NCBI GenBank assembly: GCA_051004555.1
Contig: JBPCKF010000106.1
Coordinates: forward strand, 3,683 to 67,682
Reading direction: 5' to 3'
Length of the DNA: 64,000 nucleotides
From: Phycisphaerales bacterium
GTDB taxonomy: Bacteria; Planctomycetota; Phycisphaerae; Phycisphaerales; SM1A02
Positions within the stretch are counted from its first letter, which is position 1; each line of letters starts with the position of its first letter. This document shows positions 30,617-39,051 of this stretch, piece after piece. Made by a program: the position numbers and the translations under genes. The notes beneath the pieces were generated by a model. That model made no database searches. It was not told the origin of the DNA and saw only the letters and a list, made by a program, of their open reading frames with translations.

Positions 30617-33541
30617 ATGAGTGAACGAACGCCCAACTGGGAAAGAGTCAAGGACCTGGTCGGCGATGCTCTCGAACTCGAGCCCGAAGTTCGCAGCGAC
30701 TTTCTGCGCGTCCAGGCTGGTCACGACACAGAACTTCTGGCGCAGGCAGAGTCACTGTTGGCTTCGCTTGATGATGCTGGTGAGTTCCTCGGGACGCCGC
30801 CAGTCAGTCGCGGCGTCGAGTTTGAAGATTCGCAGCACGATGCCAAGGCACTGGTTGGAACAACCATCGGCCAGTATCGCATCATTCGGTTCGTGGCAGA
30901 AGGCGGCATGGGCGCGGTGTATGAAGCTGTGCAGGAGCAGACCGGACGCACTGTCGCGCTCAAACTGATGCGTCAATCGCTTGGCGATCGCGGTGCTCAT
31001 CGGCGGTTTCGGGCTGAAGTTGACATCCTGGCACGGCTGCAGCATCCTGCAATCGCCCAGATGTTTGATGCAGGAATGCATGCGGACACATCCGGCCCAG
31101 CGGTCCCCTACTTTGTGATGGAGTTCATTGATGGCGTCAAGCTCACGCAGTATGTCGAGGAGCAGGGCCTTTCAGTTCGATCGCGTCTTGAGCTGCTGAT
31201 GCGGATATGCGAAGGCGTTCACTTTGCCCATCAGAAGGGCATTGTCCATCGTGATCTCAAGCCGGACAATATTCTGGTTGATGCATCGCGTCACCCCAAG
31301 ATTCTCGACTTTGGCATCGCACGTATTACTTCCTCAGATGTGAACGCAGCAACAATGCACACTGAGATCGGCCAGATTCTGGGGACGATTTCGTATATGA
31401 GTCCCGAGCAGGTGACGGGCGATCCCGATGCAATCGACGTTCGCGCTGATGTGTATGCACTTGGCGTGATTATTTTTCAGACGCTCACTGGCGAGTTGCC
31501 ACATGACTTACGCAGGGTGTCGTTGCTCGAAGCTGTTCGCATCATTCGCGAGACTGATGCACCAACAATGGTCAGCCTCTCCCGTGAATATCGTGGCGAT
31601 ATTGATACCATCGTTGCCAAGGCGCTCGAAAAAGATAAGGATCACCGCTATCAGTCCGCGTCGGAGCTGGCAGCTGACATTCGTCGCATGCTGGCTGATG
31701 AACCGATTCTTGCAAGGCCGCCCAGTGCGATGTACCAGTTGCGCAAGTTTGCCAGGCGCAATCGCGGACTTGTCGCAGGTGTGGCAGCTGCGTTTGTGGT
31801 CCTCGTGGCAGGTGTGATCGGAACCACGGTTGCATTGATTGATGCCAGAGAGGAATGGCAGCGCGCAGAGACAGCGCTTGCGAAGGTCACCATCGCTGAG
31901 CAGACAGCCGCGGCCCAGCGAGATCGCGCGATGGCTGCAGAGCAAAACGCAGCCCGCGAACGAGATCGCGCACTTGATGCAGAATCCGCAACCGCAATCG
32001 AACGCGACCGCGCTGTTGATGCGGAAAGGCAAGCCACCGCAGTCGCAGTCTTCCTGGAAGAAATGATGGCAACGCCCGATCCTGAAGTCAGTGGCAGGGC
32101 CATCACCATGAAAGAAGTCATCGATCTCAAAGCAGGCGAGATCGACACACGCTTTGCAGATGATCCTGCTGTTGCAGGCAGACTGCATTCAGCCATTGGC
32201 TGGACCTACTTCAGCCTCGGCGAATACAGCACCGCAGAGCGACATATGCGCCGCGCACTGTCACTCAAATCCACAATGTTCGGCCCGCTCGCAGTCCAAA
32301 CGCTTGATGAAGAGACGCATCTGGCCCAGGTGTTGCTCTGGAACTCACAAGCTGATGAGGCAGATACCCTCACAGAGAAAACACTGCGCGACGCACTTGA
32401 AGCGCTCGGCCCATTGCATGAAACAACGATTCTTGCGCGGCAGAATCGGGCAACCTATTACCAACTGGTCTCGCGCATTGAAGAGTCTCTGACAGAAATG
32501 GAAACGGTGATCGCAGCCTGGCAGCAACTCGAAGGTCAAGCCAGCAACCTGCTCACTGCCATGAACCTGTACGGCACCATGCTCACCGATGCGGGATATT
32601 ACGAAGAGGCGTACGCAATCACCAAGGAACTGTACGAACTCAAGCTCGAACAGAAAGGTGAACTGCATCCCGACACAGTGCTCGAACTGGGAAACCGTGG
32701 CAGCGCAGCTGCAAACGTCGGCCGCACCGATGAAGCGCTCGAACACCTGGAGAAGGCGCTCGAACAGGCAGACGTTGTCTGGGGCGAGCAGCATCCACAC
32801 TACATCAGCACGCTCAACCTGTATGGGTCAACATTGACGCAGGCCCAGCGCTATGACGAAGCACTGGCAGTCACGACTCGACAATATCAGCTTTGCCTCG
32901 ATGTGTTCGACGAGATGCACGCTGAGACTGTGCAGACATTGAACAATCAGATTGTGAATCTAATGTATCTGAAGCGATTCGAAGATGCCCTCCCACTGGC
33001 ACGAACACTCGTCGAGCGCGCCATTGCCACACTGGGCGAGGATGCGTTCTTTACCTGGAAAGCCATGGACACTTTGGGCAACGCACTTTCGGGCAATGGC
33101 GAATACAGCGAAGCAGCCCAATGGCACGAACGATCCTATGAGATCGGCAAAGCACAGCTCGGGCCCGATCATCCCAGCGTCATCGTGCCGCTGAACAACT
33201 ATGCGTTTTCCATTCTCTCGCTGGGAGAGGCTGAGCAGGCTGTCGAACTCTTTCGTGATGTCTTGAATCGATACACAACCGCCAATCCGCACGACGCTGC
33301 TGGAGCAGCAATCATCAAGGGGAACGTCGCGCTGGCATTGTTTGAAGCCGGGCAGAATGATGAAGCACTGACAGTCGCGCGGGAAACATTGCTCGAACAC
33401 GAGCAGGTCTTCGGCCCTGACGCTGCAATCACGCTCAAAGCAGGTCGTCGCCTGGCCCGTGTGATGGAAGCATTGAACCTTTCCCATGAAGCCAGAACAC
33501 TGCGGGACCGCGTCGGACCCGATCAGGAGGATGATCGCTGA
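30617..33541 (+). CDS. Ser/Thr protein kinase with TM segment, Arg/Asp/Ala-rich coiled coil and C-terminal TPR array
   Basis: HRDLKPDNILV, DFGIA, GTISYMSPEQ. Start set at MSERTPNWERVKDL (ATG 30617); the upstream part of the track ORF overlaps the YggX-fusion gene. Confidence 0.9.
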   Translation: MSERTPNWERVKDLVGDALELEPEVRSDFLRVQAGHDTELLAQAESLLASLDDAGEFLGTPPVSRGVEFEDSQHDAKALVGTTIGQYRIIRFVAEGGMGAVYEAVQEQTGRTVALKLMRQSLGDRGAHRRFRAEVDILARLQHPAIAQMFDAGMHADTSGPAVPYFVMEFIDGVKLTQYVEEQGLSVRSRLELLMRICEGVHFAHQKGIVHRDLKPDNILVDASRHPKILDFGIARITSSDVNAATMHTEIGQILGTISYMSPEQVTGDPDAIDVRADVYALGVIIFQTLTGELPHDLRRVSLLEAVRIIRETDAPTMVSLSREYRGDIDTIVAKALEKDKDHRYQSASELAADIRRMLADEPILARPPSAMYQLRKFARRNRGLVAGVAAAFVVLVAGVIGTTVALIDAREEWQRAETALAKVTIAEQTAAAQRDRAMAAEQNAARERDRALDAESATAIERDRAVDAERQATAVAVFLEEMMATPDPEVSGRAITMKEVIDLKAGEIDTRFADDPAVAGRLHSAIGWTYFSLGEYSTAERHMRRALSLKSTMFGPLAVQTLDEETHLAQVLLWNSQADEADTLTEKTLRDALEALGPLHETTILARQNRATYYQLVSRIEESLTEMETVIAAWQQLEGQASNLLTAMNLYGTMLTDAGYYEEAYAITKELYELKLEQKGELHPDTVLELGNRGSAAANVGRTDEALEHLEKALEQADVVWGEQHPHYISTLNLYGSTLTQAQRYDEALAVTTRQYQLCLDVFDEMHAETVQTLNNQIVNLMYLKRFEDALPLARTLVERAIATLGEDAFFTWKAMDTLGNALSGNGEYSEAAQWHERSYEIGKAQLGPDHPSVIVPLNNYAFSILSLGEAEQAVELFRDVLNRYTTANPHDAAGAAIIKGNVALALFEAGQNDEALTVARETLLEHEQVFGPDAAITLKAGRRLARVMEALNLSHEARTLRDRVGPDQEDDR

Positions 33542-33621: not shown

Positions 33622-33643
33622 CACACACACACACACACACACA
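33622..33643. repeat. (CA)11 dinucleotide microsatellite
   Basis: cacacacacacacacacacaca read directly. It ends 12 nt before ATG 33656 and abuts the AAGGTG ribosome-binding-like sequence. Confidence 0.95.
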
Positions 33644-33655
33644 AGGTGCCACGTC

Positions 33656-34153
33656 ATGCCAATCCCGGGACCCACCATTCAGACACTGCAAAGCGGATAC
33701 CCTCAAAGCGACCTTCAGACCGTGATGAAGGACATTGTGCCCGCAAAGCACTGGCTGCAAAGCGCTGAAGATCCCAACACCTGCGCCATCAGGCTCAGCC
33801 ACGCGTTCAACCATGCCAAGGTGCCGATCCGAGCGCGATCCGGCGTCGGGATGTTCAAAGGCAACGATGACCTTCGCTACATCTACCGCGCAGATGAGTT
33901 TGTCGATTACGTCACAGCCCTCTATGGCAAGCCAGACATCACACAGACCTCACGATCACACAAGCCCGCAGAGATTCGTCAGGCCATCGCAGGAAGTCCG
34001 GGCGTGCTCTTCTTCAAACTCGCAAGGACCCGCAAAGGCAAGAGCGTCGACCTCTCCGCATTCGGCCACGCTGACATCTGGGACGGCTCGACTGTCTGGT
34101 ACAACCCGACAGTGTGGGACCGCACCTGGCATGTGCAGTTGTGGACTGTGTGA
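33656..34153 (+). CDS. Tae4-family (T6SS amidase effector 4-like) peptidoglycan amidase homologue
   Basis: NTCAIRLSHAFNHAKVPI, LRYIYRADEFVDYVTALYGKPD and GHADIWDGS parallel NACPIRMSYVLNATGFPI, KFYIYRVNDMIDYLTHTMGKPD and GHVTLWNGS as I recall Salmonella Tae4. The Cys and His catalytic positions are conserved. No signal peptide. Confidence 0.65.
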   Translation: MPIPGPTIQTLQSGYPQSDLQTVMKDIVPAKHWLQSAEDPNTCAIRLSHAFNHAKVPIRARSGVGMFKGNDDLRYIYRADEFVDYVTALYGKPDITQTSRSHKPAEIRQAIAGSPGVLFFKLARTRKGKSVDLSAFGHADIWDGSTVWYNPTVWDRTWHVQLWTV

Positions 34154-34195: not shown

Positions 34196-35386
34196 TCACG
34201 CAGCTGGCGGCAGGGCAAGGACACGATCAACAACATGCGCGCGCCCCGCGCCAGCCTCGAGCATGCCGCGACTCACATCCCACTTCCCACACGCACCAGG
34301 GGGCAACATGCGCGCAACCTCATTGAAATCTTCCATATAACGGTCGCGAACATCACGCGCTGCTGCAACATGCTCAGGAAGATACTTCGCACGCTCTTTC
34401 TTTGGCGTCGACACACGCTTGCGCTCTTTCGCCTCTTCAGCACGAATCGCTTCCTCAAGCGCAAAGGTATCAGGATGCGGAACATGCTTGATGCGGCCGC
34501 CAACCACCACACCAACATAGCCACGGGGCGTGCCACCAAGGTGCTTCGATTCAACACGCTCCCTTGCTGCATGCGCCTCTCGAGGACGCACCAGTGCACC
34601 ACCAGCCAATGTCTTCTTCGCAACGTCCTCTTCCGGCTTCTTCCCCGCTGCAAGCGCATCGGCTTCGTGCACTTCCAGCAATGGCACAACCAGAGGCATG
34701 GGATCACGCCAATGCACACCAGGCGGGATCGGCAACACAATCCGCTCTTCCGACACTGCACCCGAATCAGTACGATGCGGATACCAATACGGCGTTGTCG
34801 TATCTTCTGCGTGCACACGACGCTGCCAGAAGATATGAATGCGCTGCTTGCCGCGTGAACCCGTCCGGAACGCAATCGGCACAAAACCCACCGACTCCCA
34901 GAAATAGTTTGCACGAATATCCTGTGCACACCAGCAGCAATACAATTTACATCCATATGCAGAGCGCGAAAACGCTTCGTGCAGCAGACGCGCACCAATC
35001 AGTCGCCGCTGCTCCACAGGCGAGACGTTGAGTTGATAAATAATGCCCAGGTGATCGCGATGCTTATATTCATCGCGGTGAATGATATATCCCAACGGCT
35101 GTCGCGCATCATCTGCGCTCTCAGCCAAAAGCACGTGGCCGCGCGACAGATAGGTCTGGATCGCTCCCCTGCGGAGAAACCCCACCATGTGCGAGTGCAT
35201 CTTCTGCAACATATCAACAAATGCATAATCATCCAGCGTCGCAACCCGAACCGCAACCTCGCCATCGCGGCGAGGCGAGGCAAGCACAGGCGCACACGAA
35301 CCATCCTGCCGCACCGGCAGCGATGCATGACGCATGTTCTCAGGATGAAACAGAGCAGGCAACTGATCGGGCGTCATCATCGACAT
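34196..35386 (-). CDS. GNAT-type N-acetyltransferase domain protein with Lys/Glu/Arg-rich C-terminal region
   Basis: VRVATLDDYAFVDMLQ ... GYIIHRDEY ... IYQLNVSPVEQRRLIGARLLHEAF ... ANYFWESVGFVPIAF resembles a GNAT core. Start set at MSMMTPDQ (GGAG upstream). The ORF stays open to 36196 through the 21-bp array, so the true start is uncertain. Confidence 0.6.
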   Translation of the reverse strand: MSMMTPDQLPALFHPENMRHASLPVRQDGSCAPVLASPRRDGEVAVRVATLDDYAFVDMLQKMHSHMVGFLRRGAIQTYLSRGHVLLAESADDARQPLGYIIHRDEYKHRDHLGIIYQLNVSPVEQRRLIGARLLHEAFSRSAYGCKLYCCWCAQDIRANYFWESVGFVPIAFRTGSRGKQRIHIFWQRRVHAEDTTTPYWYPHRTDSGAVSEERIVLPIPPGVHWRDPMPLVVPLLEVHEADALAAGKKPEEDVAKKTLAGGALVRPREAHAARERVESKHLGGTPRGYVGVVVGGRIKHVPHPDTFALEEAIRAEEAKERKRVSTPKKERAKYLPEHVAAARDVRDRYMEDFNEVARMLPPGACGKWDVSRGMLEAGAGRAHVVDRVLALPPAA

Positions 35387-36304: not shown

Positions 36305-37228
36305 TCAACGGCTGTCGAGCACAATCTCCGCCATTTGCTGCAGTTGCCCGACGAGTTCCTTCGTCGGCACATCGACGTGAAAATCAGGCAGGGCGTCTGC
36401 ATCGCCCTGAAAGAGCAGCGGCACGGGGACACCTTCAATCGAAACCTTGTAAACACCGATCTTTTGGCGCGCGTGATCTTCAACCACAAAGAGTACATCA
36501 TCTTCCAGCAGCGACTTCCAGCCTTCGATCCGGCCGATGCGACGATGTCGATCTTCAGGGACTGAATAGACATCGCCGTTGTCGTTGTCGATCAGGTAGA
36601 GATGATCAGCAGCACGCATGACACGGAACGGACCTTCGAGTGTTGTCTCGACGCGGGCCTTTTCGATCCATGCATCATCTTCGGGGCGATTGTGTGTCCA
36701 GTGATAGAGGCTGCCGTCGTTGACAGCGAAGACTGAGAGGTCATCCCCTTCGAGGAAAATGCAGTCGATGTAGATTTCCCAGTCAAGGATGTTGGCACGG
36801 CCATAGGTATCAATCATGTCTTCGACGGGTTGCAATTGACGGTGCGAGTTCGCCGACCATTCAAAAATCCTTTGCTGTGCGTCTCGGTCAAGCGGACCGC
36901 GTTGTGCAGATCGCGAGAATCGCAGGCTGTCATCGATTGGGAAGCGACGCGTCGCTGATCCCCACTGCCAACCGTTCATTGGACGGCGCATCCCTGCGTA
37001 GTAGAACTCGCTGTTGACGATGCCCCAAATGCACGGGCCAGTGCGGTCGTAAAAATGACCGCCTTTGGACTTCAGCGGTGCGGAATCAACGAACGCCCAC
37101 ATTGCTGCGGTCATTCGTTCCTGGTTGATGACGAGCGTGAGCAGTTCGCCAGCTTCGGTGATTGCTGCTTCGGTGATTTGCGGTGGCGCGGACAACAATG
37201 AGGCGACGGTGAGCAGTTCAAAGATCAT
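36305..37228 (-). CDS. hypothetical protein with hydrophobic N-terminus
   Basis: 307-aa ORF with protein-like composition. N-terminal MIFELLTVASLLSAPPQI. No family recognised. Confidence 0.55.
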   Translation of the reverse strand: MIFELLTVASLLSAPPQITEAAITEAGELLTLVINQERMTAAMWAFVDSAPLKSKGGHFYDRTGPCIWGIVNSEFYYAGMRRPMNGWQWGSATRRFPIDDSLRFSRSAQRGPLDRDAQQRIFEWSANSHRQLQPVEDMIDTYGRANILDWEIYIDCIFLEGDDLSVFAVNDGSLYHWTHNRPEDDAWIEKARVETTLEGPFRVMRAADHLYLIDNDNGDVYSVPEDRHRRIGRIEGWKSLLEDDVLFVVEDHARQKIGVYKVSIEGVPVPLLFQGDADALPDFHVDVPTKELVGQLQQMAEIVLDSR

Positions 37229-37255
37229 ATTGAGTACCTCTGGCAGAAAACATGT

Positions 37256-38705
37256 TCAAAGATCGGTCTGGGTGACTTTCAGTTGGTTGCCGGGGGGATT
37301 GCTTCGCAGGATCAGCGCCGGGGCATTCTCGACAAACTCTGGATTCGCATCGATATCACCATCCAAATCGAGATCGCAATTGACTTGAAGTTCCTCCAAT
37401 GAAAGTCCCTGACTCTGCGCGGTCACCCCGAACTGCAGGGCGTACCCCCAGAGGGCCTGACTCTCAAAGCTTGCAGCAATGTCGTCGCCCGGCCCTGCGA
37501 CGCCATACGGCGGCGTTCCATATGAGGGGTCGAAGAGTTTGTCGCCAACGACAACCAGCCGGTGGAAAACGAAGAGAGATGCCGGGTCGATTGTGTTCTG
37601 ACCGGACACTCCCGAGATGTCCAGAACATCCTCATGACAGAAGTCATACAGGTTGTCATCCACACGTTGGTCAAATTTGAACCAGCCGCCATGGGGGACA
37701 TTGAGATATGGCCATTCGAGGGACAGCGACGGATCTGGATTGCTCTGCATACCAGGAGCGGCCCAGGTGTTGACTAGAAACCAGGCACCTGCTCCATACA
37801 AGTTCGGGCTGTATATCGGGCGCACATCGACCAGTTCATCCTCGGGATTCACACCGACCGCATGCATGCACCGCGCAAAAAGCTCAGCCCAGGCTGTGCA
37901 TTGGCCGTCGAAATGTTGCAGCAAATCAGGTGCTGTCACATTCACCGTTTCCCATTCCCGATAGTAAGCGAGCGGCTGCGCTGGGCCTTTCAGTTCGAGA
38001 CGGTCCTGAGCGCGTGTCACATTGCCTGCCTGGAACTCACCATAGATCGCAGTTGCGATGGATTCGAAGTTCGCGGATATGAAAGGATCCCACCCCCTTG
38101 GCACGGCGGCAGCCGATATCAATGTAGGTGTAGTACAGAATCGGCAAGTCGCCATTATCACCAATGAAGTGGATGTCATGCTTGCTCGTTCCGAGCGTAT
38201 ACACATCGGGCGGACCGGGAGTCGCGGGATCGTCGACCTCCAGCGACCAGGAAATCGGATGCTTCTCCCACCAGTCGATTGTACTCGGGCTCGGGATTGA
38301 GCCCGTGAATCCAGGCGCGATAATCAACCATTCGCCATTATCGGGAAGCGCAATGACGCTTGTCGATGTGAATGTAGTGCCGCCACTTGTCCCGACGATC
38401 GTCCCATGTTGTGTATTGAACCAGTTGGTCTGAACACTTCGGACGAAGACAGTTGAAATGTGCACGTCAGCGCCGATGCTGTAGCAGATAGGAGCGCGGT
38501 CATCACCCAGCGCAAAGTCATCAGCATCGCCATCCAGGTTGGCATCCACCCAGGCTTTGGAATAGACCGCACTGAAATCGTCCTTCACCACGGTGTGAAT
38601 GCCCGGACCATCAAAGCTGACCTGGTGAAGCCTTGGATCAGGCACAACCTGTGCGTGTGCACTGCCGACCGTCAGGAGAAGCGCGAAAAATGTCAGCCTA
38701 TGCAT
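37256..38705 (-). pseudogene. secreted protein with DxDxDG calcium-binding-like motifs and a tentative transglutaminase/papain-like Cys-His-Asp core, split by a frameshift at a G5 run
   Basis: Track ORFs 38037..38720 and 37256..38206 overlap by 170 nt in different frames. Sensible sequence switches at ...YYTYIDIGCRRAKG | WDPFISANFESIA, across ccaagggggtggg (C5 on the + strand, 38093-38097). Signal peptide MHRLTFFALLLTVGSAHA. DANLDGDADDF and DLDLDGDIDA motifs. GQCTAWAELFARCMHAVGV ... FHRLVVVGDKLFDPSYG. Confidence 0.55.
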
Positions 38706-39051
38706 CGTGGAGCACCCCATAGAAGCCTGTCAACGATCTGTCCCTGACCACAATAACGATTTACGCGCATACTGTCAAGTGCATTCTATGATTTGGCTTT
38801 TGGCGTCCTCACGCTCACGGGAGAACTCTTGAAAGAGGTTGAGCGCCTTGGAGCGAGGCCCCCCCGCGCTCGACTGCCCCTCGCACCTGAACCGAAAATC
38901 ACGCCCTTTTTCAGATTTCTCATTTCAGTGGCTGCACAGTCGGTCCGAATGATGCAGATAACAAAGTTCACGGTTGTTCGTGGGCTGCACCCGATGGGCA
39001 TCTCTCTTCATCCGACGAGATGCTTTCCCTTCCGTTACAGGAGATACAGTC

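Follow-up and report, generated by a model that had tools for sequence, protein, structure and literature searches.

What does a solitary gene for a toxin-type peptidoglycan amidase do in a planctomycete genome, by what route would its product reach a cell wall, and what would spare the wall of the producer? The gene lies in the window, by which we mean the whole 64,000-nucleotide stretch of DNA analysed here (positions 3683-67682 of contig C106, from an assembly of 3.39 Mb in 114 contigs that is 97.5% complete). A sequence-only reading of the window had recognized a homologue of type VI secretion system (T6SS) amidase effector 4 (Tae4) and, taking the host for a planctomycete in which a T6SS would not be expected, had called the export route unknown. 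The host assignment agrees with the homologues of the protein, which come from Planctomycetota and Fimbriiglobus records. The features on which the following argument draws are these, in window positions:

33656..34153, plus strand: coding sequence of the Tae4-family amidase (open reading frame and translation, Pfam Tae4 match, AlphaFold2 model, Foldseek)
33776..33784, plus strand: codons of Asn41-Thr42-Cys43, the predicted nucleophile Cys with the preceding Asn and Thr (conservation, PDB alignment)
34067..34075, plus strand: codons of His138-Ala139-Asp140, the predicted catalytic His and the aspartate of the H-x-D motif (conservation, PDB alignment)
33643..33648, plus strand: Shine-Dalgarno-like AAGGTG, 7 nt 5' of the ATG (consensus resemblance only)
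33622..33643, plus strand: (CA)11 dinucleotide tract directly upstream, abutting the ribosome-binding site (sequence)

The open reading frame is intact from the ATG at 33656 to the TGA at 34151-34153 (165 codons plus stop) and encodes a protein of 165 aa, 18.6 kDa and pI 9.3 with a single cysteine. The start codon is assigned to ATG 33656 and not to GTG 33557 because 11 homologues of 161-168 aa share an MxIxG N-terminus that begins there; the longer 198-aa product from the GTG was rejected, as all homologues begin at the MxIxG aligned with ATG 33656. The N-terminus is hydrophilic and the protein leaderless, which agrees with the earlier statement that a signal peptide is absent. No sigma-70-like site was found in a promoter scan upstream of the gene. 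The (CA)11 tract is the sole (CA) tract of at least seven units in the 3.39-Mb genome, and six homologous genes have no such tract upstream of them. As a candidate slipped-strand switch, the tract might regulate the amidase gene. For unsaturated pairs within the subfamily, dN/dS is 0.17-0.24; values this far below 1 show that the gene is under purifying selection and hence in use.

Family membership was addressed by profile, sequence and structure comparisons. The only Pfam family returned by hmmscan was Tae4 (PF14113; 55.6 bits, curated cut-off 27 bits, E 7.4e-15, profile positions 3-104 of 125), while no NCBIfam model matched the amidase. Against PDB sequences, phmmer returned only Tae4 chains (4hfk, 4hff, 4j30, 4jur; E about 1e-8). 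An AlphaFold2 model built on 55 homologues reached a pLDDT of 96.1 and a pTM of 0.90, and it shows the papain-like two-lobed NlpC/P60 fold, superposable on solved Tae4 structures: the 11 significant Foldseek matches in the PDB are all Tae4 or Ssp1 (TM 0.67-0.81; Tae4 of Enterobacter, Salmonella and Agrobacterium and Ssp1 of Serratia), and the next match has an E value of 0.47. The sequence blocks DPNTCAIRLS, RYIYRADEFVDYVTALYGKPD and FGHADIWDGS are present, and the three blocks quoted in the sequence-only reading, including RYIYRADEFVDYVTALYGKPD, can all be found in the 165-aa frame. The 55 homologues show no variation at Thr42, Cys43 and His138, and at least 90% of them keep Asn41 and Asp140. 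In the phmmer alignments Cys43 falls on the catalytic Cys of 4hfk, 4hff and 4j30, and His138 on the His of the Tae4 GH motif; with Asp140 as the third, acidic residue, sequence alignment thus supplies the Cys-His dyad and its partner that are expected of a Tae4. Cys43, His138 and Asp140 form the predicted catalytic centre, which is Ssp1-like. The assignment to the Tae4 family made in the earlier reading, and the profile and superposition checks proposed with it, accordingly came out in its favour: Pfam Tae4 scores above cut-off, the model superposes on Tae4, and Cys and His align in sequence. By profile and predicted fold, then, the putative amidase is a genuine Tae4-family member, new and divergent within a family already known, and, from that membership, it is expected to be an active NlpC/P60-type cysteine enzyme cutting the gamma-D-Glu-mDAP bond.

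Comparison with solved effectors places the active site more closely. Ssp1 of Serratia marcescens (4bi3/4bi4; immunity protein Rap1a) is likewise an NlpC/P60 amidase of some 165 aa with one domain and no leader, and it is matched by the amidase at a Foldseek TM of 0.67-0.68 and about 17-19% identity. Its catalytic centre was defined crystallographically as Asn48, Thr49 (oxyanion hole), Cys50, His133 and Asp135 (PMC3852654). Asn41-Thr42-Cys43 of the amidase correspond to Asn48-Thr49-Cys50, and H138-x-D140 to His133/Asp135, so that the residues indicate an arrangement of the Ssp1 type. No PDB entries match better than the Tae4 proteins of Salmonella Typhimurium and Enterobacter cloacae (4hff, 4hfk, 4hfl, 4j30, 4jur), either in structure (TM 0.70-0.81, E about 1e-10) or in sequence (21-23% identity), and they share with the amidase the aligned Cys and His, the size and the lack of a leader. 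However, they carry Thr at His+2 and take the triad Asp from another, later loop (PMC3852654), whereas Asp140 of the amidase stands at His+2. Ssp1 also has a disulfide near its active site (PMC3852654), which the amidase, having only one Cys, cannot form. Tae4 of the environmental bacterium Agrobacterium tumefaciens (6ijf), a T6SS amidase effector, has the same fold (TM 0.71) at 20% identity. Genetic context differs as well: the Ssp1 gene sits within a T6SS cluster adjoining Rap1a, the Salmonella and Enterobacter Tae4 genes adjoin Tai4, and the A. tumefaciens protein was crystallized in complex with its Tai4, while the amidase gene has no T6SS linkage and no such partner was found for it.

The surroundings of the gene agree with the orphan position described from the sequence. 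Upstream ends, at 33541, a Ser/Thr kinase gene with TPR repeats; downstream, a convergent GNAT-like frame occupies 34196-35350 on the minus strand and ends at 34196, with a weak Pfam Acetyltransf_7 match below cut-off, followed by uncharacterized genes and then an H+-pyrophosphatase gene. GC content at the locus is unremarkable, and the idea of a compositional island found no support in any GC anomaly. The neighbours are multi-copy, which puts the amidase gene in an accessory-type block. The GNAT-like gene (34196-35350, minus strand) has six further genomic copies at 37-48% identity (C64, C45, C95, C32 and two on C9) and thus belongs to a multi-copy cassette. Frames of 227/316 aa and 307 aa at 36305-38720 (minus strand) form a pair that recurs in the same order at at least six other loci, with paralogues on C45, C20, C82, C49 (two copies) and C41. 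The first gene of this pair encodes a protein of about 480 aa with a GQCTAWAE cysteine motif, read here as overlapping 227- and 316-aa frames, and the second an uncharacterized protein of about 300 aa. Neither Pfam nor PDB sequence searches gave a match for the pair, including the 316-aa frame with the GQCTAWAE motif against the PDB; its layout resembles that of a polymorphic secreted enzyme and its partner.

A secretion system to match this leaderless enzyme is present in the genome. On one strand of contig C23 lie tssA, tssB, tssC, hcp, tssE, tssF, tssG, clpV, a gene for an uncharacterized 309-aa protein, vgrG, two large uncharacterized genes and a PAAR gene, and on contig C90 are tssK, tssL and a tssM candidate of 1529 aa, in which only the IcmF-related N-terminal domain was matched and the family search for TssM did not find PF06761. 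In tblastn, TssC, Hcp and VgrG each occur once, and family searches found one match each for PAAR and TssK; by these homologies, the genome encodes one T6SS, distributed over C23 and C90. No informative Pfam matches were obtained for the uncharacterized genes of the T6SS loci (309, 754, 543, 324 and 315 aa). The 324-aa gene upstream of tssK (C90:18039-19013; L008:10043-11014) does weakly match (E 0.014) the C-terminal part of the FHA protein of T6SSs, and if that match is real the T6SS may be under threonine-phosphorylation control. The gene preceding that of the amidase codes, as it happens, for a Ser/Thr kinase, but no link between the two was shown.

Every T6SS component found (TssA, B, C, E, F, G, K, L and M, Hcp, ClpV, VgrG and PAAR) lies on contigs other than that of the window, as the earlier reading of a 64-kb stretch devoid of T6SS genes would have it, but the expectation built on it, that the host has no T6SS and the export route is therefore unknown, is contradicted by the system on C23 and C90. 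Nor is the amidase gene linked to hcp, vgrG, PAAR or adaptor genes, the single hcp, vgrG, tssC and PAAR genes all being on C23. Contamination was considered as the source of the T6SS contigs and rejected: C23, C90 and C106 have GC and tetranucleotide signatures typical of the bin, TssC occurs in related single-contig genomes, which argues that the presence of the T6SS is no binning artefact, and a contig of 3.6 Mb encodes a TssC with 87% identity. The TssC of the genome (C23:19938-21437; L005:3942-5438) shares 81-87% identity with TssC from Gamma-, Beta- and Deltaproteobacteria and from further Planctomycetota MAGs. Such identity of a sheath protein to proteobacterial TssC marks a canonical proteobacterial-type T6SS and points to a horizontal spread of this type into planctomycetes, in which T6SSs have already been noted (PMC6461901).

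The amidase gene and the T6SS are both rare in this clade. The genome has one Tae4 gene, and 60 relatives from its family or order have none; TssC is present in 6 of 61 (a count that includes the present genome), and among those six the present genome is the sole Tae4 carrier. The close subfamily amounts to about 12 clusters at 44-55% identity among 5.8 billion proteins, sharply set apart from the rest (214 bits for the last member against 89 bits for the next match), and a search of 1.84 billion proteins at E 1e-30 yielded just one 50%-identity representative. Its named records are a Planctomycetota MAG and a Fimbriiglobus MAG. The Fimbriiglobus MAG is the one further species genome in which the subfamily was found, and it too has TssC; the co-occurrence consequently comprises two genomes only. 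A recent joint transfer of T6SS and Tae4 between these two carriers is unsupported, as their TssC proteins are 52% and their Tae4 proteins 47% identical. A verrucomicrobial MAG without TssC encodes a distant Tae4-family protein with a clear N-terminal signal peptide (L015:9353-10348). Within these few genomes, the leaderless form fits a T6SS cargo and the leader-bearing verrucomicrobial form fits Sec export. Matches in the wider Tae4 search also include fusions to peptidoglycan-binding or SH3 domains and a hemichordate protein.

With a T6SS on other contigs of the same genome, the amidase most probably belongs to that system as a stray toxin of the ordinary kind. We think it probable that it is an orphan Hcp-type cargo effector that cuts gamma-D-Glu-mDAP in rival cells, with the substrate, Hcp loading, T6SS dependence and target all deduced from the family and from co-occurrence. 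The leaderless enzyme would be made in the cytoplasm, away from the wall, where the lack of a signal peptide would keep it harmless to the producer. As a small cargo it would be loaded into the Hcp tube of the single Hcp/VgrG/PAAR T6SS and injected into diderm neighbours, in whose periplasm the Cys43-His138-Asp140 centre would hydrolyse the gamma-D-Glu-mDAP bond of stem peptides and weaken the wall. The effector would thus be encoded apart from its apparatus, in an accessory-looking multi-copy block. Small effectors are known to travel inside Hcp, and the 18.6-kDa leaderless protein has the format of the solved Tae4/Ssp1 effectors. This cargo role is further favoured by the Pfam score of 55.6 bits and the pLDDT of 96.1, with Tae4/Ssp1 effector folds alone significant; by the invariant Cys43 and His138, the Asn41 and Asp140 conserved in at least 90% and the Ssp1-like H-x-D; by the dN/dS of 0.17-0.24; by the presence of the T6SS on bin-typical contigs (C23, C90) of the same genome; by TssC in both carrier genomes in spite of its rarity in the clade (6/61); and by the contrast with the verrucomicrobial Tae4, which has a signal peptide where TssC is absent. 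Against it stand the lack of any T6SS gene, VgrG, PAAR or adaptor near the amidase gene, the narrow basis of the co-occurrence (two genomes only) and the matter of immunity.

A cargo amidase would ordinarily be paired with an immunity protein, and here none was recognized. The genome-wide HMM search for Tai4 (PF16695) gave no match, and that for Rap1a (PF18602) nothing significant, the only hit being a 14-bit match broken by stop codons. Within 900 bp of the amidase gene, on both strands, no frame of at least 40 aa has a secretion-type N-terminus, and the adjacent cognate periplasmic immunity gene of an effector-immunity pair is missing from the locus, in keeping with the earlier reading. That reading had also held that a complete T6SS together with Tai4 elsewhere would make the gene a routine stray effector; the T6SS was indeed found on other contigs, but no Tai4 or Rap1a homologue in the genome. 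A producer devoid of peptidoglycan, and hence in no need of immunity, was rejected as an explanation: the genome has two PBP transpeptidase genes, which imply that it makes peptidoglycan and that the producer's wall is presumably susceptible, a point that weighs against the cargo role. If the immunity gene is absent, its absence would count only when sister cells fire on one another, and sister cells would then be protected by something other than a dedicated immunity protein.

The same gap runs through the subfamily. On Gemmatales-type contigs the gene holds a stable position beside thioredoxin-reductase-like and N-acetylglutamate synthase-like genes, where it follows the thioredoxin-reductase-like gene and is itself followed by a convergent gene or a cytoplasmic-looking 90-aa frame. 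One further subfamily contig has an 89-aa leaderless frame and a HicB-like gene downstream, and another a PEP-CTERM protein gene 260 nt downstream. The neighbours at four subfamily loci (L009, L010, L011 and L014) were considered as immunity candidates and rejected, since tblastn found no homologue of them in the present genome and the loci have no neighbour in common. Three distant Tae4 genes do have coupled partners. One (L018) lies inside a T6SS effector island, and the other two (L019 and L020), like the amidase gene, are orphans remote from T6SS genes, sitting between housekeeping genes, yet each has a tight partner, in one case a 178-aa frame overlapping by 4 nt and in the other a 174-aa frame 28 nt upstream, where the amidase subfamily has none. 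The lack of a conserved neighbour across the subfamily, set against these partners, suggests that the missing linked immunity gene is a trait of the subfamily and not an accident of one locus; such a lack is unusual among wall-degrading T6SS effectors and also tells against the cargo role, as does the want of Tai4, Rap1a and a coupled small secreted frame in the present genome. Small antitoxin-like genes of the HicB/UPF0150 type stand near subfamily Tae4 genes on two unrelated contigs (L010:1761-1967; P0008 contig) and may mark mobile or accessory insertion spots.

Tae4 subgroups differ in their immunity families (PMC3852654), which makes room for an unlinked immunity protein of an unrecognized family. 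The immunity gene of the amidase would accordingly be either unlinked and of an unrecognized family, or absent. That the second holds, and that a rare planctomycete-restricted subfamily (about 12 clusters, an H-x-D triad, no disulfide) does without a dedicated immunity protein because its carriers are intrinsically insensitive, for instance by virtue of an altered stem peptide or an atypical periplasm, or because the effector has been domesticated, we consider doubtful. Intrinsic insensitivity would allow a T6SS wall toxin to be carried unpartnered, and the (CA)11 tract might then add on/off control of a dangerous gene.

The cargo role has to be weighed against three other accounts. The one that survives best, which we nevertheless hold to be unlikely, makes the protein a domesticated, endogenous amidase with a cytoplasmic or self-directed role, such as the processing of recycled stem peptides (L-Ala-gamma-D-Glu-mDAP) or wall remodelling. 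An immunity gene would be unneeded for such a role, which agrees with the lack of one beside the gene at any subfamily locus and of Tai4 and Rap1a in the genome; the stable Gemmatales-type position beside thioredoxin-reductase-like and N-acetylglutamate synthase-like genes, the purifying selection and the single Cys of the subfamily, hence no disulfide of the kind found in the periplasm-acting Ssp1, suit it too, and Tae4 members outside T6SSs are known, as the peptidoglycan-binding and SH3 fusions and the hemichordate protein among the matches illustrate. A housekeeping enzyme, however, would be commoner than one that is absent from 60 of 60 relatives and amounts to about 12 clusters in 5.8 billion proteins, would not be expected among multi-copy accessory genes, and would leave the T6SS of both carriers, rare as it is (6/61), to chance; for wall remodelling, the leaderless protein would not even have the wall within reach.

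It is quite improbable that the amidase is a bacteriolytic enzyme freed by a route other than the T6SS, be it vesicles, lysis of a subpopulation or an unrecognized leaderless export. Such a release would suit a gene that is unlinked to any T6SS gene and whose unique (CA)11 tract might switch expression on and off in part of the population, and Sec-exported Tae4 homologues do occur in genomes without TssC; but the signal peptide of those homologues is absent here, both carrier genomes have a T6SS, and evidence of an alternative route was not found. That the gene is what is left, silent or in decay, of an earlier effector-immunity pair, as the missing immunity gene, the apparently frameshifted neighbouring secreted gene (overlapping frames) and the accessory-looking block might hint, is highly improbable in view of the intact frame, the full set of catalytic residues, the highly confident model, the dN/dS well below 1 and the Shine-Dalgarno-like site.

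Some Phycisphaerae-type planctomycetes thus carry a proteobacterial-type T6SS, and with the amidase as its probable load at least one recognizable antibacterial cargo. An effector family that has been studied in depth gains a divergent member, and the wider interest of the finding is limited to the subfamily's consistent want of an immunity partner, which, if real and not a failure of detection, would offer a natural case for immunity-independent protection against wall-degrading T6SS toxins or for the bacterial domestication of such a toxin.

A putative second secretion locus adjoins the T6SS genes. Directly beside tssA, the stretch C23:23079-30302 (L005:7083-14303) encodes two proteins that together look like a two-partner secretion system: one of 1559 aa contains a TPS secretion domain, and the other, of 832 aa, gives a weak match of the ShlB/FhaC type that falls short of the Pfam cut-off.
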